The notes under the pieces were generated by a model, which did not search any database, was not told the DNA's origin, and saw nothing but the letters and a program-made list of their open reading frames with translations. DNA of 64,000 nt from an uncultured Thermodesulfobacteriota bacterium (GTDB lineage Bacteria > Desulfobacterota > Anaeroferrophillalia > Anaeroferrophillales > Anaeroferrophillaceae): positions 3,747-67,746 of the forward strand of contig CAYZIS010000013.1 in the NCBI GenBank assembly GCA_964478545.1, read 5' to 3'. Within the stretch, counting starts at the first letter, position 1. Each line of letters starts with the position of its first letter. Both the position numbers and the translations under genes were made by a program. Below are positions 5,169 to 63,258 of the stretch, one piece after another.

Positions 5169-5216
5169 TAAGGTGTACGGTTTAAGGTGTACGGTTTAAG
5201 GTGTACGGTTTAAGGT
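5169..5216 (+). repeat. 14-bp tandem repeat TAAGGTGTACGGTT x3.4
   Basis: Exact copies at 5169, 5183 and 5197, plus a partial copy at 5211. Confidence 0.95.
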
Positions 5217-5272: not shown

Positions 5273-6451
5273 ATGGGCTGTCCTGGTTATCGTTTCGCCG
5301 TCCTTCACTGCGGCCTGAAAAAAGGAGATCAACTCGATCTGGCCCTCATTGTTTCTGAAAAGCCGGCGGTTGCGGCGGCGGTTTTTACCACCAATAAATT
5401 TCCGGCGGCCCCGGTCATCTATGGCCGACGGCAGCTTGCTGTTGCGATGCCAATCAGTGCGGTGCTGGTGAACAGTGGTAATGCCAATGCCTGTACCGGT
5501 GATCAGGGGGTGGCTGATGTCAAACAGTTGGCCAAAGAACTTTCGTCTGTCCTCTCTGTTCCTGAAGAACAGATTTTTATCTCTTCCACCGGCGTGATCG
5601 GTGAACCCCTGCCGGTGGATATGATTGCTGCCTCTCTTCCGCGTTTCCCCGACCTTCTTTCAGCTTCCGGGCTGCCGGCTGCAGCTACGGCCATCATGAC
5701 CACAGATTCACAATCTAAAACCTGCTCGGTTTCGCTGCAACTTTCAACCGGCGTTGTGCATCTTTGCGGATTTGCCAAAGGTGCCGGGATGATAGAACCC
5801 AATATGGCAACCATGCTGGCCTATCTGCTGACAGATGCTGCCATTGACTGCAGCAGGCTGCAGGAAATTTTGAAGAGAGTGGTGGATAAAACCTTTAATC
5901 GGATCAGTGTGGATGGGGATACCAGTACGAACGATACGGTTCTGCTCCTTGCTAACGGCGTCTCTGGTTGTTCCCTGGCATGCGATGCGGATGCAAAGGT
6001 TTTTGAAGCCGGTTTGTACCAGGTTGCCGATGAGCTTTCCCGGATGATCGTTAAAGATGGTGAAGGGGCGACCAAAATGGTGGAAATCCTGGTCAAGAAT
6101 GCTCCTGATCGCCAGGCTGCGGAAAAGATCAGTCGAACCATTGCCCATTCCCTGCTGGTGAAAACCGCTTTTTATGGAGAGGATGCCAACTGGGGGAGGA
6201 TTATCGCGGCTTTAGGGTATGCCGGTGTGGATCTGGATCCTGGGCGGGTGGATATCTGGCTTGACCGGATTCAAGTGGTAGCCGATGGCCAAAGGTGTCC
6301 TGACTACAGGGAAGCTGATGGTGCCAGGGTATTCCGGCAGGATAGCTTTACCATTACCATTGATCTGCATGCCGGAGATGGTAGTTTTTCCCTGCTGACG
6401 ACCGACCTTTCCCATGAGTATGTTTCCATCAATGCCGATTACCGGACTTGA
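5273..6451 (+). CDS. argJ: Glutamate N-acetyltransferase / ornithine acetyltransferase ArgJ
   Basis: NSGNANACTG, STGVIG, AKGAGMIEPNMATML, DGDTSTNDT, DGEGATK, INADYRT. Confidence 0.97.
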   Translation: MGCPGYRFAVLHCGLKKGDQLDLALIVSEKPAVAAAVFTTNKFPAAPVIYGRRQLAVAMPISAVLVNSGNANACTGDQGVADVKQLAKELSSVLSVPEEQIFISSTGVIGEPLPVDMIAASLPRFPDLLSASGLPAAATAIMTTDSQSKTCSVSLQLSTGVVHLCGFAKGAGMIEPNMATMLAYLLTDAAIDCSRLQEILKRVVDKTFNRISVDGDTSTNDTVLLLANGVSGCSLACDADAKVFEAGLYQVADELSRMIVKDGEGATKMVEILVKNAPDRQAAEKISRTIAHSLLVKTAFYGEDANWGRIIAALGYAGVDLDPGRVDIWLDRIQVVADGQRCPDYREADGARVFRQDSFTITIDLHAGDGSFSLLTTDLSHEYVSINADYRT

Positions 6452-6762
6452 AGTTACTTTGAAAATGGCCTTTTTGCCCGATTATGGTGTTGGTCTTACA
6501 TTTTAATCCTCCCGTACCTGTCACCCCGGCCATTCTGTCTGCCAAGCTCACGGCGGCGAACAAAGATTTTTTATGCTTGCCAGGGGGGAATATGAAAATA
6601 TTCGTCAAAAAGGGTAGAAAAGTATCCGATTTGGGCATATTTTTACCACTTTTTAACGTTTTCTGAAGTTGTATACAATTTTTTTAAAAAAGGGGATATC
6701 TTAGAATTCAGAAGTTGCTGTTTTTGCTGTCTATTTTAATAACCGTATATTTTATAGTTGTA

Positions 6763-6778
6763 TGGTGTGAATATTGCT
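6763..6778 (+). promoter_or_regulatory. sigma-54 -24/-12 promoter candidate for the PEP-CTERM gene
   Basis: TGGTGT-GAATA-TTGCT with correct GG to GC spacing, about 80 nt upstream of the ATG. Confidence 0.5.
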
Positions 6779-6858
6779 AGTGTAGTCATACATAGTGTTA
6801 TTCAGGAAAAAATAGTGGAAGTAATTTACCTAATTCAACGAAAAAGGAGGGAAAGTAA

Positions 6859-7524
6859 ATGAAGAAAGTATTAACAGCGATAGTAGTAGGCCTGACCCTG
6901 TTATGCGTGACGGGCCTGGCCCAGGCGAGCTTGACCACCATCGGCACAGCCACCTATGGCGGCTTGGATTACAACCTGATCTGGGACAAGGACAACAACG
7001 GCAACTCCATAGTCTGGCTGGATTATACTAATGACGCAATTAACTGGTACAGTCAGAAAGCCTGGGCCGCCGGGCTTGACTCGTCTATAACCTACAATAT
7101 CGATCCGGGCTGCTTTACCGTTGCCTGGGATGATGCTGCCTGGCGGCTGCCAAGCACCGGATCGTCTAATGCGGGCTACGACCAAACCACCTCTGAGATG
7201 GGTGATCTGTTTTACAATGATCTGGGATTAAGTGGGAGTTCTACTACTACTACTACTGCCGAACAATTAAACGCCACCAATTTTGACAATTTAATTGCGG
7301 GCCAGTACTGGTCCGGCACGGAGTATAGTTCGAACTCCGGCTGGGTCTTCATCATGAAAAACGGCTACCAGGGCGGTGACCCCAAGGACAACAGCCACTG
7401 CGGGTTGGCTGTTCGCGGCGGACAAGTTTCAGCGGTTCCCGTTCCCGGGGCCATCTGGTTGCTTGGCTCAGGGCTTCTTGGTCTGTTGGGCATTCGCAGG
7501 CGGAGAAAAGGGATGCGTGTATGA
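6859..7524 (+). CDS. DUF1566 (Lcl C-terminal, CLec-fold) protein with VPLPA/PEP-CTERM sorting signal
   Basis: Signal peptide ending AQA; YWSGTEY...W.F...G.Q....K.....LAVRGG; C-terminal VPVPGAIWLLGSGLLGLLGIRRRRK. Confidence 0.88.
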   Translation: MKKVLTAIVVGLTLLCVTGLAQASLTTIGTATYGGLDYNLIWDKDNNGNSIVWLDYTNDAINWYSQKAWAAGLDSSITYNIDPGCFTVAWDDAAWRLPSTGSSNAGYDQTTSEMGDLFYNDLGLSGSSTTTTTAEQLNATNFDNLIAGQYWSGTEYSSNSGWVFIMKNGYQGGDPKDNSHCGLAVRGGQVSAVPVPGAIWLLGSGLLGLLGIRRRRKGMRV

Positions 7525-7544
7525 TTATTTGGTTATTGGGGGGT

Positions 7545-7570
7545 GCGGGGGGCTTTTGCCCCTTGTCCGC
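7545..7570. other. GC-rich hairpin downstream of the DUF1566 gene
   Basis: GCGG-GGGGC-TTTT-GCCCC-TTGT-CCGC. Confidence 0.5.
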
Positions 7571-7618
7571 CGCAAATTTTTTGTAACTATTAGGTTAACA
7601 ACGAAAATAAAATAACGC

Positions 7619-7690
7619 TCACAGAGGCTCAGAGACACAGAGAAAAGCAAACTTCTTTTCCGCGTCTCTGAGTCTCTGGTGCCTCCGTGA
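7619..7690. repeat. About 72-nt imperfect palindrome built from 8-9-nt CAGAGAC units
   Basis: Left arm tcacagaggctcagagacacagagaaaag; right arm reverse complement tcacggaggcaccagagactcagagacgcggaaaag. Confidence 0.75.
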
Positions 7691-7695
7691 GAAAA

Positions 7696-8028
7696 TGCTT
7701 CGCCAGGGGTCACATCGTGACAAAGGCTATTGAAAATCACCAATAAAAGAAAATATCACGATACGCCTTTTCGCAACTCATGAAATAGATCGGTGGCTGT
7801 TCCTGAATTTCACCGAATTTCCTACTCAATTTCCCCTATTTTTTTTGATACCTGATTACCTTTTGTTTGCCTTTGATAATTTTAATCGGTAAATATTCGG
7901 CTACGTAAAAAAACACTATCTTACAGCGGGTAATTAAGTTGGTTCGCTTCGCCCTGCTTCGCCAGGGGTCACATCGTGACAAAGGCTATTGAAAATCACC
8001 AATAAAAGAAAATATCACGATACGCCTT
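7696..8028 (+). repeat. Perfect 74-bp direct repeat (7696-7769 and 7955-8028)
   Basis: TGCTTCGCCAGGGGTCACATCGTGAC...ATCACGATACGCCTT is identical in both copies. Confidence 0.95.
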
Positions 8029-8098
8029 CGTCAAGAAATGACCCCAATCCCGGTAGTTTGAAAACAATACCGAATATTTACTTCAATCGAGTTTGACC

Positions 8099-8128
8099 CT
8101 ATTGGTTTCTATTGGTTTCTATTGGTTT
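8099..8128 (+). repeat. 10-bp tandem repeat CTATTGGTTT x3
   Basis: Read directly from the sequence. Confidence 0.9.
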
Positions 8129-8225
8129 GTGTTTTCCCCCAGGAAAGATGCTGGGTAGCATGAAAAGCATTGATTCCGAAACGGATGGATTTTACTTCTT
8201 GTTTTTTTCCGTAATATGATCTAGA

Positions 8226-8250
8226 TATTCAATGTAAATACAAATGAATA
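8226..8250. promoter_or_regulatory. Putative antitoxin operator palindrome
   Basis: TATTCA-A-TGTA-AA-TACA-AA-TGAATA, 20 nt upstream of the antitoxin ATG. Confidence 0.5.
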
Positions 8251-8270
8251 TTGTAGAAAAGGAGGGGTAT

Positions 8271-8510
8271 ATGAAGGCAACAACAATCCGCATGGAAGAA
8301 ATGATGCTTGCACGAGTCGATTCCATGGCGAAAAATATTAACCGGTCACGAACTTGGCTTATCAATCAAGCTGTCGAGCGTTTTTTAAACTATGAGGAGT
8401 GGTTTATACAGGAAGTGAGAGCTGGGCTCGATGAAGTAGCAAATGGTGAAACTGCTACCCCTGAAGAGGTAGTAAAAGGTTTTGCCAAATGGGGTGTGCA
8501 TGCAGATTAG
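8271..8510 (+). CDS. CopG/ribbon-helix-helix antitoxin
   Basis: MKATTIRMEEMMLARVDSMAKNINRSRTWLINQAVERFL; overlaps the toxin gene; RBS GGAGG. Confidence 0.85.
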   Translation: MKATTIRMEEMMLARVDSMAKNINRSRTWLINQAVERFLNYEEWFIQEVRAGLDEVANGETATPEEVVKGFAKWGVHAD

Positions 8511-8781
8511 GTGGACAAAGAAAGCCCTTAACAATCTGGATGCTGCCGTTAAGTATATCGCTAAAGAGAGTCCGACGAATGCTCAAATGGTTGCTCAAAA
8601 AATTTGGAACTCAATGCAACTTTTAACAACTCAGCCAGGTCTCGGTCGGCCCGGTCGAATTGATGGAACCAGGGAGTTAATTATCGGTGGGTTACCATAC
8701 ATTGTTCCCTACCTTGAACAAGAAGGTGTAATTGTTATTTTGCGAATCATGCACACTTCAATGAAATGGCCGGAGAGTTAG
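8500..8781 (+). CDS. RelE/ParE family toxin
   Basis: MQIRWTKKALNNLD...GRPGRIDGTRELIIGGLPYIVPY...ILRIMHT. Confidence 0.9.
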   Translation: MQIRWTKKALNNLDAAVKYIAKESPTNAQMVAQKIWNSMQLLTTQPGLGRPGRIDGTRELIIGGLPYIVPYLEQEGVIVILRIMHTSMKWPES

Positions 8782-9862: not shown

Positions 9863-11430
9863 GGTATCTTTTTTCGAACCAGAGCGGCCACGGCAGCCAT
9901 TTCCCGGCTTCCCAGGGCCAGGGAACTGACGGCATATATCAATCCACCGGCAATAACCAGGGCTATTAATTTCCCGGCATCTAGCAACTGGTGGCTATAG
10001 CTGATGGCAAACCAGGGAAATTTAGTCAGCAATAATAATGATGCAGTCATAATGCCTGATGCCGCCAGTGCCTGTATCAGGGGTTTCAGGATCCCCCTGA
10101 TTTTCAGTTGTTGCTGTTTTTTCCTGAGCAGGAGAAAAAGTAGAATAAGAAAATTGGCAGCGCTTGATATGGCAGTCGCCAGGGCCAGGCCGATATGTTT
10201 GAGCGGGAACATTAATGCCAGGGCAACAATAATATTTATTACTAAGGCGATTCCCCCGACCTTCACCGGGGTAGCGGCATCCTGAAGCGAATAAAATGTT
10301 GGCACAATGATACGCAGGGCGGCGTAGGCCCATAACCCGCAGGTGTAGGCAATCAGTGTCTGGGAGACCATGATGGTTGAATTGGCATCGAAATGGCCCC
10401 GTTGAAAAAGGACGTAGATGATAGGTTTGCTCAAGACAATCAGCCCGGCCATGGCCGGCAGGGTGATGAACAACAATCCTCGGATGGCCAGGGAGAAGGT
10501 TTGGGAAAAGTCAGCCCATTGCTCGCCATGAGCCTGTTTGCTTAACGTTGGCAGAATTGCTGTTCCTAAAGCGACGGCAAAAATACCTAAGGGAAACTGG
10601 ACCAGTCGGTCGGAATAGTAAAGATATGAAATACTGCCATCAACCAGAAATGAAGCCAGCAGCGTATTGACAAAAATGGTGATCTGGGTGATGGCCAGGC
10701 CCACGAGCGATGGTCCCATGAGTTTCATGATATTTTTGATTGCCGGATGACGGAAATGATATTTAGGGACCAGTGAAAATCCTGCCCGGTGTAGAAAAGG
10801 AACTTGGAAAGCCAGTTGGGTAATACCCCCCAGGATGACACCTATGCTAAGGGCCAGGGCCGGATTTCCCAGGGGTCGGCTGAACAGGCAGATGGCAGTG
10901 ATCATGCAGATATTCAGTAATACCGGCGCCAGGGCCGGGGCAAAGAAATGTTCGACGGAATTTAAGATTCCCATGGACAGCGCCACCAGACTGATGAGCA
11001 GGATGTAAGGAAACATGATGCGACTGAGAAAAACAGTGAGCTGAAATTTATCGGGATTGTGCTGGAATCCGGGGGCGATCAATTTAACAATCAGTGGTGA
11101 AAAAATGATTCCGGCAATGGTTACCAGGACGAGGATGATAGAAACCAAGGTGAGTGCCGTCTGGGCAATGTCACGGGCTTCCTGTCGTTTATCTTCTGCC
11201 AGATAACGGCTGAAAACCGGGATGAAAGAAGCGGTCAGTGAGCCCTCGCCAAAAAGCCGGCGGAGCAAGTTGGGAATTCTGAAGGCGACAAAAAAGGCAT
11301 CGGCGGTAAAACTGGTGCCCAGAAAACGAGCAATAACCATGTCTCGGACGAAACCAAGAATCCGACTGGCAAAAGTGGCGCTGCTGACGATTCCAGCGGC
11401 CCGGATAATTCGCTGTTTGCTATCACTCAT
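9859..11430 (-). CDS. murJ: Lipid II flippase MurJ (MviN)
   Basis: SRILGFVRD, DAFFVAFRIPNLLRRLFGEG, YYSDRLVQFPLGIF. Confidence 0.97.
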   Translation of the reverse strand: MSDSKQRIIRAAGIVSSATFASRILGFVRDMVIARFLGTSFTADAFFVAFRIPNLLRRLFGEGSLTASFIPVFSRYLAEDKRQEARDIAQTALTLVSIILVLVTIAGIIFSPLIVKLIAPGFQHNPDKFQLTVFLSRIMFPYILLISLVALSMGILNSVEHFFAPALAPVLLNICMITAICLFSRPLGNPALALSIGVILGGITQLAFQVPFLHRAGFSLVPKYHFRHPAIKNIMKLMGPSLVGLAITQITIFVNTLLASFLVDGSISYLYYSDRLVQFPLGIFAVALGTAILPTLSKQAHGEQWADFSQTFSLAIRGLLFITLPAMAGLIVLSKPIIYVLFQRGHFDANSTIMVSQTLIAYTCGLWAYAALRIIVPTFYSLQDAATPVKVGGIALVINIIVALALMFPLKHIGLALATAISSAANFLILLFLLLRKKQQQLKIRGILKPLIQALAASGIMTASLLLLTKFPWFAISYSHQLLDAGKLIALVIAGGLIYAVSSLALGSREMAAVAALVRKKIP

Positions 11431-13352
11431 GGTTTGATGGCAGCAGAAAATTGGTTAATTATCTTCAATGCCTGGGGACTCAAGGGAGCTAATCGACTAT
11501 CTTCCTGTTTCCAGGAAAAAGGGGTAGTACTGGCAAAGATTTTTTGTTCTTGACGGTTGAAACTGAAAAGTGTGGTCTGACTGATGGCCTCCGGCGGCCG
11601 GGAAAAAGTTGCAAACTCTATCTGGCTTTCACCGTTACCATGATTGTTTACCACAACGAGCCCGTGGTTGTAGGACAGCTTGAGTTCGATGAGCTTCTGC
11701 TTAATAGCGGAAAACTCCTTGATAATGGCATCTTCGCTGATCTTTAGTTCGGCAATTTCCTGGGAGATCAAATGGTAGGTTTTAAGACGTTTTACCATGA
11801 TTGCAGTTATGGAGATCTGCAGTCGTTCGCGGAGTTCATCGATTTGCCCATGGGAAATCAACTGCATAATTGCGGCTCTCTGCTGGTCGGTCAGACTCAT
11901 GTTTTTCTGTTGTTCGATAGTTTGAAAAAGATGGGTGATTTCTTTTTCAAGTTGAGATTGGAGATGAACTTTTTTGGTCACTTGAGGGATGAAATGATCG
12001 AGTTTGGCTGACAACTTTTTCATTTCCAGGTTTATTTCTTCTTCCTGCTGCTGGTAAGCTGGTAAAGCCATAGGATCAATACCCAGGACTGATTTTCCAC
12101 TGCCGAAAATACCATGGCAGTAAATAAAAGTGCCGGCGGTTACTGTTCCGGCATGCATGGCATCACTAATGATAACCTCAGAACCCTTCATGATTGAGGT
12201 TATGCAGGTTTCAACTATTATCTGCCGGCCGATGACGGTGCTATTTTCAACCACGGCGTTGATCTGGATATCATCTCCTTCAATGAAGGCCCCCACCACC
12301 TTGTTAATGGAGATATGCTTGCCGATGATCCTGGCACCCGGATCGACAATCCCCGAAATTTTGATATTTTCCCCTTTCAACACGGCGCCCCGGCCAACGT
12401 TGCCGTTGACCGTGATCTTCTTAGCCATCAGGGTGAATCCCGGTTTTACCGTATCCTGGAGAATATTATTGGACCCCTCAACCTTAATGGCGGTTGATAC
12501 CTGGCTGAATTCTTTTATGGCAATGTTGCCGGTGGAAAAATCCACCTGGCTAACCAGAACATCAGGGTCAATGAAAAAACCTTTGGCGGGATCACGGTAG
12601 AGAAAACCGGTAATTAGTGCTTTGAGAATTGTCCGGTTTTTTTCCGGCTGTTCCTCGGCGGTGATTGATTTGTGGTCATAGGCAAGTTTAATTACTTCTT
12701 TACCCGGTTCAGCCGGAATGGGATCGCCATAAATGGTTGATCCATCAATGCCGGCAGTCGCATGGGTCAAAATAGCGATATCACTGTTCTTTTTAACCAA
12801 TTTGTCACTGAATCCCAAATCATGATAATCTATTTTCCCCGTTTTTTCATCGCTGATTTTCCCCGGTTTTAGTTCCAGATCAATAAGTTCCTCCAGGAAA
12901 CTGTTCTTTCCTGGTTGGGGTAGAGTTGGGGATGCCAGCTGGATGGTAAAATAATTCCGGTACCTTCCCTGCTTCTGGTATCCTTCCAGGTAGGTGGCGA
13001 TATGATTTTTCAGCTTTTGTGTGTTTGGCAGGCCGTGGATAATTCTACTGCCAGCAATTACCTCTTGCATTTTGACCAGGATTTCACTCTTTACCGCCGC
13101 TGCGGACGGGTTCAGGATGCGTGAGTTGGGCCGGATAGAAAGGTAGGCATATTGTTCCCCATCCACTTCATCAAGGTGAATGAAAATATCCAGTTTTTCA
13201 ATATGTTGTTCTGAATTATTCATAAAAATGGCTAATTCCTGCTCTTTCTGGCTATAACCTAGATTTTTCCCGTATGCTATTTCATATCTTGTGGTGATAA
13301 ACAAGAGATTTTTTGTTCCAATAACGAATTCGCGGATGAGTTCTCTAATCAA
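11427..13352 (-). CDS. Second FapA/DUF342 family protein (alternative start 13223)
   Basis: GKIDYHDLG, DGSTIYGDPIPAEPG, VDFSTGNI, beta-helix-like ITVNGNVGRGAVLKG, C-terminal coiled coil. Confidence 0.72.
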   Translation of the reverse strand: MIRELIREFVIGTKNLLFITTRYEIAYGKNLGYSQKEQELAIFMNNSEQHIEKLDIFIHLDEVDGEQYAYLSIRPNSRILNPSAAAVKSEILVKMQEVIAGSRIIHGLPNTQKLKNHIATYLEGYQKQGRYRNYFTIQLASPTLPQPGKNSFLEELIDLELKPGKISDEKTGKIDYHDLGFSDKLVKKNSDIAILTHATAGIDGSTIYGDPIPAEPGKEVIKLAYDHKSITAEEQPEKNRTILKALITGFLYRDPAKGFFIDPDVLVSQVDFSTGNIAIKEFSQVSTAIKVEGSNNILQDTVKPGFTLMAKKITVNGNVGRGAVLKGENIKISGIVDPGARIIGKHISINKVVGAFIEGDDIQINAVVENSTVIGRQIIVETCITSIMKGSEVIISDAMHAGTVTAGTFIYCHGIFGSGKSVLGIDPMALPAYQQQEEEINLEMKKLSAKLDHFIPQVTKKVHLQSQLEKEITHLFQTIEQQKNMSLTDQQRAAIMQLISHGQIDELRERLQISITAIMVKRLKTYHLISQEIAELKISEDAIIKEFSAIKQKLIELKLSYNHGLVVVNNHGNGESQIEFATFSRPPEAISQTTLFSFNRQEQKIFASTTPFSWKQEDSRLAPLSPQALKIINQFSAAIKP

Positions 13353-59792: not shown

Positions 59793-60003
59793 AGATTCTC
59801 TGCCTGAAATATGTCTTTTGTTCAAAAATCCATCCCGGTTCAAGAAAAAATCATTAGCGATTATCCAAAAAGTGTACCGGACATTAGTATCCAGGCATAG
59901 CAAGATGACGACCGGGCAATGTCTGGAAGCCGACGAAATCAGACTGAAAAGCTGCTTGACAGCTTTGTGGTTTTATTGCTAATAGCAGTTGCAGAAAATT
60001 ATC

Positions 60004-60090
60004 GCCGGAGTGGTGAAATTGGTAGACGCACGGGACTCAAAATCCCGCGGGGGCGACCCCGTCTCGGTTCGATTCCGAGCTTCGGCACCA
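60004..60090 (+). tRNA. tRNA-Leu(CAA)
   Basis: GCCGGAG acceptor stem, TGGTAGAC D-arm, CGGGA-CTCAAAA-TCCCG anticodon arm, long variable arm, GGTTCGATTCC, encoded CCA. Confidence 0.97.
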
Positions 60091-60099
60091 TTAATATCA

Positions 60100-60900
60100 A
60101 GGGGTTACAGTGTGATATCTGTAACCCCTTTTTTAATATTTTCTTTGCCTGTGTAATTACGGCAAAAAATATCAATTTCTTATCAGTTGATTGACCGGTA
60201 CCTTTATACCTTTTTCCCAGTACATCCATTGCCGATTGAATATGTTTTCCGTTCTGGTGGCTGTATCGTGCAACCATTTGCAAAGTTTTGTGACCTGAAA
60301 TTCTTTGCACTGTTGGGAGGTCAATACCAGCCTGGACAAGATGAGTGATGGCTGTATGTCGTAAAGTGTGCGGGACAATTTGCTTCGGATCAAGATCGGC
60401 AGCCTTAACCACTTCCCTGAAGGCGTATTCTGGCCATTTGATATGACCACATCTTGATCGAGATGATGGCAACAGCCACTCTTGCTTGGCATCTGCTGCC
60501 TTGAGATATTCTGCAAGATATTCAGCCAGATTTTTTTATTGGTTGCTCGTGTGTTCCTGCCTTGGCATGTGGGATGTAAATAACTCGACGCTGTAAATCA
60601 ATATTTTCAATCCTAACGGAAAGGATCTCAAACTTTCGCATGGATGTTGCCAGGGCGATTTTGATAAAGGGGTAAATGAAAGGGGCTTGATGTTCTGATG
60701 CTGCCCTCAGTAGTTTTGACACTTGGGGAGTTGTGAGATAAATAATCCTTCCACTATCTTCTTTCAGCCTATTAATTTTGGCTGGATGGTGATTGATCCA
60801 CTTCCATTCTACAGACTTAGAAAAGAGATGTGACAGCGCGGCCAACTCTCTGTTGACCGTACTGTTTGTGGGCCTTCTTCCTTATGCAGAAAAAATATGG
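60100..60900 (-). pseudogene. Frameshifted tyrosine integrase oriented toward tRNA-Leu
   Basis: Pieces in different frames: NSTVNRELAALSHLF, ALATSMRKFEIL, HTLRHTAITHL...GHKT...ARY. Confidence 0.85.
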
Positions 60901-61929: not shown

Positions 61930-63258
61930 ATGCCGGAAAACCAGAATATCGAATGGAAAGAATCTTGGCGTAGCGAGTATCTGAAGTGGATTTGCGGTTT
62001 CGCCAATGCCCAGGGGGGTGAACTGGTGATCGGCAAGAACAACCGGGGCGAGGTTGTCGGTATCGATAACGCCCGCAAACTGCTGGAGGATATTCCCAAT
62101 CAGGTGCGCGATCTGATGGGGATTCTGGTTGATATTGATCTCCACCAACTAGACGACCTTGATTATCTGGAGATCAAGGTGGAACCCTACCCCTATCCGG
62201 TCAGCCTCAAGGGGGCCTATCATTACCGCAGTGGCAGCACCAAACAGGAGATGAAAGGAGCGGCACTGGACCGTTTTCTGTTGAGAAAGCAGGGGAAACA
62301 CTGGGACGGCGTGCCGGTGCCCCATGTTGAAGTGACGGATCTGGATGAAAAGGCCTTGCGGTGGTTCCGGAGCTTGGCGCTTAACAGTAAACGATTGTCT
62401 AAAGCGATTCTTGATGAAAACGATTCCGTCCTAATTGAAAAGCTCCATTTGACGGACGGCGATTACCTTAAGAGGGCCGCGATTCTGCTGTTTCATCCTG
62501 ATCCGGAAAAATATGTCACCGGCGCTTATGTCAAAATCGGTTTTTTCCGTACCGATTCCGATTTACTCTACCATGATGAAGTCCACGGCGATCTTTTTGC
62601 GCAAGTCAACCGGACCATTGATCTGTTGTTGACTAAATATTTCCGGGCGATGATCTCCTATGAAGGTTTGCAGCGGATTGAAACCTGGCCGATTCCAGAA
62701 GCCGCCCTGCGCGAGGCGGTGCTGAATGCGATCATCCATAAAGATTATGCCGCTGGTACGCCAATTCAGATCAGTGTTTACGAAGATCGGTTGATGATTT
62801 GGGACAGTGGCCGGTTGCCGGAAAACTGGACAATTGAGAATCTGATGCAAAAGCATTCATCCGAGCCGTATAATCCTGATATCGCCAATGCGTTCTTCCG
62901 TGCGGGTAGTGTGGAAACATGGGGGCGGGGTATTGAACGGATAATGGACTCCTGCCGGGAAGTGGGATTACCGGCACCAGAATTTAAATATGAGCATACC
63001 GGATTGTGGGTGATTTTTTCTTTTTTCGGCCAATGTGACGAAAGTTCGGAGAAAACGTCGGAGAAAACGTCGGAGAAAACGTCGGAAAAAATATTAAGGG
63101 CGATTGAAAAAAACAGGGATATTACAATTGCGGAGCTGGCTGAAATTGCCAGGGTCAGCACTAGATCCATCGAACGAAATATTAAAAAACTTCAGGAACG
63201 CGGAGAGTTGAAGCGAATCGGGGCCGATAAAGGTGGTCATTGGGAGATGTCGAAGTGA
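61930..63258 (+). CDS. AlbA_2 (Schlafen-like) + ATP-binding (HATPase_c_4-type) + C-terminal HTH protein
   Basis: ENQNIEWKESW..ICGFANAQGG, YRSGST, LREAVLNAIIHKDY, YNPDIANAFF..VETWGRGI, ITIAELAE..VSTRSIERNIKKL. Confidence 0.85.
   Translation: MPENQNIEWKESWRSEYLKWICGFANAQGGELVIGKNNRGEVVGIDNARKLLEDIPNQVRDLMGILVDIDLHQLDDLDYLEIKVEPYPYPVSLKGAYHYRSGSTKQEMKGAALDRFLLRKQGKHWDGVPVPHVEVTDLDEKALRWFRSLALNSKRLSKAILDENDSVLIEKLHLTDGDYLKRAAILLFHPDPEKYVTGAYVKIGFFRTDSDLLYHDEVHGDLFAQVNRTIDLLLTKYFRAMISYEGLQRIETWPIPEAALREAVLNAIIHKDYAAGTPIQISVYEDRLMIWDSGRLPENWTIENLMQKHSSEPYNPDIANAFFRAGSVETWGRGIERIMDSCREVGLPAPEFKYEHTGLWVIFSFFGQCDESSEKTSEKTSEKTSEKILRAIEKNRDITIAELAEIARVSTRSIERNIKKLQERGELKRIGADKGGHWEMSK
63046..63090 (+). 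repeat. In-frame 12-bp tandem repeat TCGGAGAAAACG x3.7 (SEKT)n
   Basis: Read directly from the sequence. Confidence 0.95.

Follow-up and report, generated by a model that had tools for sequence, protein, structure and literature searches.

In a 64,000-nucleotide (nt) stretch of contig CAYZIS010000013.1 from an uncultured Thermodesulfobacteriota bacterium (hereafter the window), the gene at 6859–7524 on the forward strand very probably contains a variable region (VR) that was written by a diversity-generating retroelement (DGR), as a member of a true family of DGR targets. Its product of 221 residues, taken from the list of open reading frames (ORFs), combines a signal peptide, a C-type-lectin-fold domain of the Lcl_C/DUF1566 type that bears the VR, and a tail of the PEP-CTERM type. 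An earlier note, made from the letters of this DNA alone, had claimed just such a VR in a protein of this fold and tail, and the claim is borne out by relatives in which the family is a proven DGR target. Provided that the VR was written by a DGR, continued service of the gene in trans by a cassette of template repeat (TR) and reverse transcriptase (RT) elsewhere in the genome and a fairly recent orphaning of it appear about equally likely; a cognate TR-RT is presumed to exist.

In the mechanism that we propose, the gene would be a stand-alone DGR target module, one that comes without avd, TR and RT. The RT of a DGR would copy an AAC-rich TR to cDNA with misincorporation at template adenines, and the cDNA would then replace the VR, whereby AAC codons would become NNC and adenine-poor scaffold codons (TGG, TTC, GGC and others) would stay. 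The 130 nt at 7293–7422 would have been written by this mutagenic retrohoming, and the module would have retained the conserved 3′ boundary of the VR together with a cassette-type flank (ATTTGG repeats and a terminator-like hairpin). The protein itself would be exported by the Sec pathway, adopt a C-type-lectin-like Lcl_C/DUF1566 fold, and reach the surface by way of its PEP-CTERM tail.

Codon signature and adenine-specific divergence

The limits of the VR (130 nt, AATTGCG...CGCGGCGGA; 7293–7422, forward strand) were set by homology to the TRs of relatives with proven VR/TR pairs, and they lie close to the 7306–7425 of the earlier note. Within the VR, the hypervariable core (residues 157–181, SSNSGWVFIMKNGYQGGDPKDNSHC; 7327–7401, forward strand) is made of NNC codons between the scaffold codons TGG, TTC, ATG, GGC, CAG and AAG. 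Read in the frame set by the ATG at 6859, positions 7333–7401 give the 23 codons AAC TCC GGC TGG GTC TTC ATC ATG AAA AAC GGC TAC CAG GGC GGT GAC CCC AAG GAC AAC AGC CAC TGC. Seventeen of them end in C and one in T, and the remaining five encode W, M, K, Q and K (TGG, ATG, AAA, CAG and AAG), which agrees exactly in counts and frame with what had been claimed. By comparison, C stands at the third position (C3) in 27% of the 17,295 codons that make up the window's 40 other ORFs. For a stretch with the amino acids of 7333–7401 this background predicts 6.7 codons ending in C, and the Poisson-binomial probability of at least 17 is 4.5e-7; none of the 16,415 other 23-codon windows in these ORFs reaches 17, the maximum being 16, seen four times. 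General codon usage, the explanation that the earlier note had set against its own reading, does not account for such a bias. The C3 of the window VR core (0.68) is in the range of the VRs inside cassettes (mean 0.63, n = 12), and the VRs without an RT in the flank lie below it (mean 0.49–0.50).

The same gene has a second C-rich stretch near its N-terminus, at about 6934–7002, where 16 of 23 codons end in C and the sequence is conserved, not variable. The upstream codons with mixed third positions, to which the VR had been contrasted, are accordingly found in the middle of the gene only. As a separate observation, the slightly longer interval 6925–7010 (LTTIGTATYGG.DYNLIWD.DNNGNS) is rich in C-ending codons, highly conserved at the nucleotide level with the related locus L010, and invariable in the family.

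A protein search returned 670 homologues (protein clusters), mostly of 215–245 residues and from metagenome-assembled genomes of Desulfobacteraceae or Desulfobulbaceae; the family belongs mainly to sulfate-reducing Desulfobacterota and is also present in Scalindua, Nitrospira and Planctomycetes. In the family alignment, which comprises the best 120 of the 670 homologues, entropies of 3.2–3.8 bits are concentrated at positions 158–160, 163, 165, 167, 168, 170, 172–175 and 177–180, and the near-invariant residues W162, F164, M166, G169, Q171, K176, G182, L183, A184 and R186 interleave with them. The frame W-x-F-x-M-x-x-G-x-Q-xxxx-K-xxxxx-GLAVR that had been read from the window protein is thus upheld, and outside the hypervariable block the protein is well conserved. 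At the hypervariable positions the residues N, Y, D, S, G and H lead, that is, those reachable from AAC, and K, E, Q, M and W occur in only 2–12% of the sequences. M166 is exchanged mainly with L, matching a change of ATG to NTG, and K176 with E, Q, R and T, matching AAG to NNG. Close homologues also occur as a tandem pair with differing VRs (L105, 2270–3749).

The relatives carry the cassette that the window lacks. In the loci fetched from them (labelled with L-numbers), the canonical order is target, bAvd, AAC-rich TR and RT, and VR and TR mismatch almost only at TR adenines. In L013, a more distant relative, a target with Lcl_C domain and PEP-CTERM tail is followed by bAvd, TR and RT, and all 19 mismatches of its 134-bp VR/TR pair fall at TR adenines. 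L016, one of nine loci returned when metagenome contigs were scanned for the TR core (TGGAAYTTYAAYATGAAYAAYGGNAAYCARAAYAAY), encodes a full-length family member that is 52% identical to the window protein and has a PEP-CTERM tail; bAvd, TR and RT come next, and 23 of the 24 mismatches in its 139-bp pair are at adenines, the 24th being the end of homology. VR/TR pairs like that of L016 are present in L042 (12 of 13 mismatches at TR adenines) and L092 (18 of 21), those of L015, L017, L018 and L020 behave as in L016, and adenine-specific mismatches are likewise found in L015, L017 and L067. Since the VR is followed by an in-frame tail in these proven cassette targets, the order of VR and then sorting tail is the norm of the family, cassette targets included, and not unusual as had been thought.

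The proven pairs run from AATTGC to GCGGA, after which the VR continues with CAA and the TR with TAA, so that the TRs part from the VRs exactly after GGA. When the 3′ ends of the VRs from the window, L015–L017, L067, L070 and L078 are aligned, the boundary, GCGGA followed by CAAGTTTCAGCG, is conserved with the proven targets. In the window the VR 3′ end and the first bases beyond it (GGGTTGGCTGTTCGCGGCGGA followed by CAAGTTTCAGCGGTT; 7402–7437, forward strand) show the same nucleotide-level conservation across family targets, and judged by its sequence this boundary may function as an initiation of mutagenic homing (IMH) site. When the window VR is compared with the nearest foreign TRs (L017, L021 and L010), it differs at 16 of 36–37 adenine sites and at 6–7 of 65–66 other sites (Fisher P ~1e-4); the TRs encountered so far exceed it in length by two codons.

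These comparisons bear directly on the possibility that no retroelement was involved and that the signature reflects codon bias in a gene that is strongly expressed or came by horizontal transfer, combined with ordinary positive selection acting on the loops by which a lectin binds its ligand. The invariable N-terminal stretch with its 16 of 23 C-ending codons would fit such an explanation, as would the GC content of the gene (53.6%, against 49.6% for the window). On the other hand, it leaves without explanation that the differences from related TRs cluster at TR adenines, that variable positions carry the residues to which AAC can give rise, that family members stand in cassettes with adenine-specific VR/TR mismatches, and that the flank is homologous to cassette spacers (see below). 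It is disfavoured, and we regard it as very improbable.

An observation on the RT genes of the relatives may be added here. Compared with the RT of L013, those of L016, L018, L019, L020, L042, L091 and L092 match over residues 1–298, and the C-terminal part follows about 340 nt further downstream. This suggests, at the sequence level, that the RT gene of this clade has an insertion or an extra segment.

Remote service or loss of the cassette

Trans targeting can be followed along a single contig of a relative. One intact TR on the 5.7-Mb contig CAXXNM010000003.1 (L067:11495–11630) matches four VRs. Two of them adjoin it, at L067:10567 (14 of 15 substitutions at TR adenines) and at L067:6505 (16 of 20). 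The VR of L070 lies about 0.78 Mb from the TR along the contig (21 of 22 at TR adenines, plus a 3-nt insertion), and that of L078 about 5.2 Mb along the contig, a distance that a circular replicon would shorten to about 0.5 Mb (16 of 18). At both remote sites, L070 and L078, the copies retain avd and a 5′-truncated RT and have no TR. Judged from these matches, trans targeting takes place within the target family. The earlier note had taken the window gene for such a remote target; trans targeting is seen in the family, and the cognate TR was not found in the collections scanned. The contig as a whole contains one intact cassette and three copies of the form target, avd and 5′-truncated RT. The three copies lack the TR and RT residues 1–91 and share an identical junction after avd, and their VRs still match the sole intact TR.

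Several results weigh against the proposed reading. In the 64-kb window, blastn at word size 7 gave only chance matches for a TR copy, tblastn with 124 related RTs returned nothing at E <= 0.01, and the search for avd gave a single chance-level match inside a UvrD-like helicase gene. Pfam found neither RVT_1 nor bAvd among the 40 window ORFs, so that the lack of a local RT, claimed earlier, holds for all 64 kb. Likewise, no TR, avd or RT was found in the 10 kb upstream of the gene on a 70.6-kb ENA contig. A pattern of the form 'VR base or A' had no match in genome, metagenome and viral collections, from which the VR itself was also absent, so that this negative weighs little; the non-coding near-copy differing at TR adenines that the earlier note proposed to look for was therefore found neither in the window nor in these collections. 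A look-up that started from the RT fragment of L010 led to five RT contigs, all of which carry cassettes from other organisms that mismatch the window VR at many non-adenine sites. None of 40 translated TR-like short ORFs fits the window VR, the spacer being two codons longer or other scaffold residues being present. Within the core itself, AAA at 7357–7359 and GGT at 7378–7380 misfit a pure AAC-to-NNC model.

Relatives without a cassette point in the same direction. The species-representative genomes yielded 285 family loci, of which 79 were kept, and an RT or avd is present in the available flank of 11 of the 79. Three orthologues in this set (L024, L025 and L027, from three species representatives) have VRs that differ at only four codons and carry AAG, GAG, AAT and AGT. 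Many members with RT-less flanks have decayed, vertically inherited VRs, and orphaning is therefore common in the family. In the cultured isolate Desulfobacter latus AcRS2 (L049; NZ_JACADJ010000030.1, 10001–12182), target, avd and RT are present and the TR is down to its last 27 nt, which appears to be a degenerate cassette.

The gene was also identical in the five contigs compared (eight are on record), which come from five samples (ENA, Logan and JGI), and ongoing diversification is thus not seen. Samples with this contig are SRR8862235, SRR7528417, the source runs of ERZ27316679 and ERZ27315768, and JGI 3300023262. Over up to 17.5 kb of flank the same five contigs show no single-nucleotide polymorphism, and this makes them effectively clonal and a weak test of diversification. 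We had considered the identity of the VR across samples as a sign of inactivity, and discounted it, the contigs being clonal throughout. One difference of another kind was seen, namely an extra tandem unit (TAAGGTGTACGGTT-type) in the spacer between SecA and ArgJ, where the window and the 70.6-kb ENA contig differ by one 14-nt repeat copy at 5169.

All of these points would suit an orphaned relic, that is, a gene that was once a cassette member or a trans target, lost its avd-TR-RT, and has since kept a frozen VR subject to ordinary mutation only. The window without a cassette, the cognate TR that the searches did not find, the identical gene in five samples, the RT-less orthologues with nearly unchanged, decayed VRs, the degenerate cassettes of relatives (L070 and L078 without TR and RT 5′ end; the 27-nt TR of D. 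latus) and the non-canonical AAA and GGT can all be accommodated by such a history. However, the NNC signature of the window VR is as clean as in VRs beside intact cassettes, and with a background C3 of only 27% an old loss should already show as synonymous decay. In addition, the VR 3′ boundary and the cassette-type flank are intact, and since the contigs are clonal throughout, the absence of variation among them says little. Based on these results, we give the relic a substantial share of the probability, somewhat short of an even chance.

A fourth explanation, an assembly artefact in which several VR alleles, or a VR and a TR, were fused, is suggested by one of the relatives. The Logan contig SRR27685485 (L010, 1–1511) joins a full target to an unmutated TR and an RT, without a PEP-CTERM tail. 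P0057, the homologue encoded on it, ends in ...AWNFNMNNGNQNNNYKNNNEYGLAVRSG before its stop codon, a stretch built of AAC codons, and 10 nt further on a DGR RT begins, with the motif LPIGNLNSQFFA. The reading of P0057 as an 'unmutated target' was dropped, and the contig is now taken as an assembly chimera in which the 5′ part of a target is joined to a TR, because in L012 bAvd, a 340-nt spacer, TR and RT follow one another with no gene upstream of the TR. Most likely, the VR/TR repeat gave rise to L010 as a de Bruijn chimera, and its listing as P0057 is a caution for protein databases. For the window gene, by contrast, the sequence is identical in five assemblies (ENA, Logan and JGI), including the 70.6-kb contig, and the reading frame, tail and flank are all intact. 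An artefact is thus scarcely credible here. A VR written by a DGR, whether still served or recently orphaned, remains our preferred reading.

Target protein, 3′ flank and surroundings

The ATG at 6859 is preceded by a Shine-Dalgarno sequence, GGAGG, 8 nt upstream. Residues 1–23 (MKKVLTAIVVGLTLLCVTGLAQA; 6859–6927, forward strand), read from the sequence as a Sec-type signal peptide, end in AQA, after which cleavage would be expected; A23 is invariant across the family. Pfam Lcl_C (PF07603, formerly DUF1566) matches residues 39–186 with 27.7 bits (E = 3.5e-6), below the gathering cutoff of 34.9. This match spans nearly the whole profile, and many family members carry a precomputed PF07603 call. 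We read the protein as a probable divergent member of Lcl_C, with which the predicted structure agrees. The AlphaFold2 model, built with 107 homologues, has a mean predicted local distance difference test score (pLDDT) of 88.9, with helices at residues 2–18 (the signal peptide, at lower pLDDT) and at residues 198–215 (the sorting tail), and the VR falls on the strands at 149–192. Its best PDB match is the C-terminal domain of Legionella Lcl, 8q4e (Foldseek E = 1.5e-3, probability 1.00, template modelling score 0.53 on the target, 17% identity), and C-type lectin-like domains come next in the long ranking.

The VR ends 33 codons ahead of the stop codon, and the last 33 residues (QVSAVPVPGAIWLLGSGLLGLLGIRRRRKGMRV; 7423–7521, forward strand) form a tail of the PEP-CTERM type, in which QVSAVPVPGA with its VPxP motif is followed by a hydrophobic helix and the basic cluster RRRRK. 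TIGR02595 PEP_CTERM scores 19.2 bits, above its cutoff of 16, and PF07589 scores 19.8 bits, just below its cutoff of 20.7. By this tail the protein is most likely placed at the surface, and the tail sequence suggests that it would be sorted by an exosortase. Pfam found no exosortase gene among the 40 annotated ORFs of the window; of the exosortase surface display claimed earlier, the tail is therefore supported and the sorting enzyme is not found in the window.

Downstream of the VR, the flank resembles that of a cassette target up to the point where avd would begin. The stop codon is followed directly by TGATTATTTGGTTATTGGGG, the stop codon and the short repeats of ATTTGG type (TGATTATTTGGTTATTGGGGGGT) occupying 7522–7544 (forward strand), which correspond to the conserved start of the target-to-avd spacer. 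A motif of this type stands right after the stop codon in 11 of 12 cassette targets and in 8 of 41 targets without RT (Fisher P = 1e-5). A G/C-rich hairpin comes next, beginning 21 nt past the stop codon and about 120 nt past the end of the VR; it consists of GCGGGGGGC-TTTT-GCCCCTTGT (7545–7566), followed by CCGCCGCAAA and a T-run at 7577–7582 (7545–7582 overall, forward strand), the sequence directly behind the hairpin reading CCGCCGCAAATTTTTTG. The element is terminator-like, and in cassettes its homologue stands between target and avd. Its RNA fold has -29.8 kcal/mol (z = -3.1). The sequence of the stem is conserved and that of the loop is not, and in 1.29 Mb of loci the stem motif GGGG..TGC[AG]GGGG is found almost only downstream of family targets (L013, L014, L066, L067, L091 and L103). 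The homology of the window flank with the target-to-avd spacer of L017 and with the flank of L106 extends through CGCCGCAAtttttttG, including the T-run, and in L017 avd starts about 25 nt beyond the T-run. By this homology to cassette spacers, the window contains a complete target module that ends where avd would start. L106 (2872–3768) has the cassette-type 3′ flank and no cassette in its 8-kb contig; a tyrosine-recombinase gene and toxin-antitoxin pairs stand after the flank in place of avd.

Most simply, the hairpin at 7545–7566 would be the intrinsic terminator of the target gene. A simple scan for terminators missed it, as the T-run begins 10 nt beyond the stem, and Rfam gave only chance-level matches over 6400–8400. 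The earlier note had proposed the hairpin as a homing stem-loop. Such a role is possible by analogy, since the hairpin also stands between target and avd in real cassettes, but it is about 120 nt away from the VR and has a TTTT loop, against the published 4–34 bp and GRNA loops, and it is terminator-like. The alignment of VR 3′ ends revealed no conserved hairpin immediately after the VR.

A more far-reaching idea is that portable modules, each with lectin gene, VR, PEP-CTERM tail, ATTTGG repeats and G-rich hairpin, are dispersed in Desulfobacterota genomes and all have their VRs rewritten by a single TR-RT acting in trans, with the conserved flank, over 100 nt away from the VR, as the mark of a target. 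We consider this unlikely. If it were true, the mode of recognition would be unlike that of the BPP-1 hairpin, and the modules would supply an exosortase-sorted repertoire of variable cell-surface receptors.

Outside the target module the window is ordinary chromosome, with MurJ, XerC-HslVU, ArgB, an AddAB-like helicase-nuclease pair and a type IV pilus/type II secretion system cluster, and the 10 kb upstream on the 70.6-kb ENA contig contain housekeeping genes only (SMC_N/AAA-domain protein, NAD kinase, FapA, M23 peptidase, SecA and ArgJ). Just past the target module there is an imperfect 23-nt inverted repeat at 7622–7678 (CAGAGGCTCAGAGACACAGAGAA / TTTTCCGCGTCTCTGAGTCTCTG), single-copy in the window, and a similar string, CACAGAGCACACAGAGA, is present after the homologue in L024. 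Between the target gene and a ribbon-helix-helix (RHH)/ParE pair lies a 720-nt non-coding stretch that contains a perfect 74-nt direct repeat (7696–7769 and 7955–8028, 259 nt apart). Contigs from other samples end in or near this repeat (7725, 7747 and 7922), which therefore breaks assemblies. Three tandem copies of CTATTGGTTT at 8099–8133 precede the RHH (8244–8510)/ParE (8482–8781) toxin-antitoxin pair by about 110 nt and may be operator repeats; they resemble the TTATTTGGTT repeats after the stop codon of the target gene. The far end of the window carries the C-terminal fragment of a phage-type integrase (59999–60472) and a Schlafen/AlbA_2 + HATPase_c_4 protein (61930–63258), perhaps the edge of a mobile element.

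Comparison with known systems

About 14% of curated DGRs have VRs of the DUF1566 type (CLec2), as exemplified by Legionella LdtA, and non-adjacent targets were found in 45 of 372 DGRs, in 10 of which targets lie at distances above 100 kb (Wu et al. 2018, PMC5758913). Both VRs of this type and remote targets are thus already established, and the window gene adds another member. Like LdtA of Legionella pneumophila (category 'd', PMC5758913), the window protein is small and secreted, with a C-type-lectin VR of the DUF1566 type near the C-terminus. An AAC-rich TR serves to diversify LdtA, which the cell displays at its surface (PMC5758913). However, LdtA is a lipoprotein encoded beside its own cassette, whereas the window gene has a PEP-CTERM tail after the VR and no avd, TR or RT nearby, and set against LdtA the similarity of the window protein to Lcl_C is weak (27.7 bits, under the Pfam cutoff).

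In the TvpA paralogues of Treponema denticola, one TR-RT serves several distant targets, and the same is seen in the family on contig CAXXNM010000003.1. Unlike the TvpA paralogues, the window gene is one for which the serving cassette was not found. The Treponema targets are not known to be of the DUF1566 type.

With Mtd of BPP-1 the window gene shares a GC-rich conserved VR 3′ end and a GC-rich hairpin downstream of the target, and as in the BPP-1 model the point at which VR and TR diverge would set directionality (Guo et al. 2011, PMC3240598). The hairpins of DGR targets have stems of 7–10 bp and 4-nt GRNA loops and lie 4–34 bp from the VR (Guo et al. 2011, PMC3240598). In contrast, the window hairpin follows the VR at a distance of about 120 nt, past the tail and stop codon, and has a TTTT loop and a T-run.

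Lcl, to which the model of the window protein bears a structural likeness at 17% identity, is a collagen-like adhesin, and we know of no report of a DGR-diversified Lcl. With PEP-CTERM proteins such as the flocculation protein PepA (NF033554), to which there is a weak match, the window protein shares the order of VPxP motif, helix and basic cluster; it differs from PEP-CTERM/exosortase systems in that no exosortase gene lies within the window. In the literature searched, no description was found that links PEP-CTERM or exosortase to DGRs, the papers on exosortase and retroelements being unrelated by their titles and abstracts. The anchoring of a DGR target family by PEP-CTERM thus appears undescribed, and so, it seems, is the conserved flank of the target module.

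To our knowledge, DGRs are the only prokaryotic system known to rewrite chosen codons on purpose, and we know of a role for few cellular DGR targets. A PEP-CTERM tail on a diversified lectin family would put DGR-made diversity on the exosortase-sorted surface and matrix. Moreover, the family allows three states to be compared, namely cassette targets, remotely served targets and orphans, and this comparison, together with the conserved 3′ flank, could address which features allow a gene to be targeted remotely. As for annotation, the window gene shows that its own sequence can be enough to recognise a DGR target, even with the RT on another contig.

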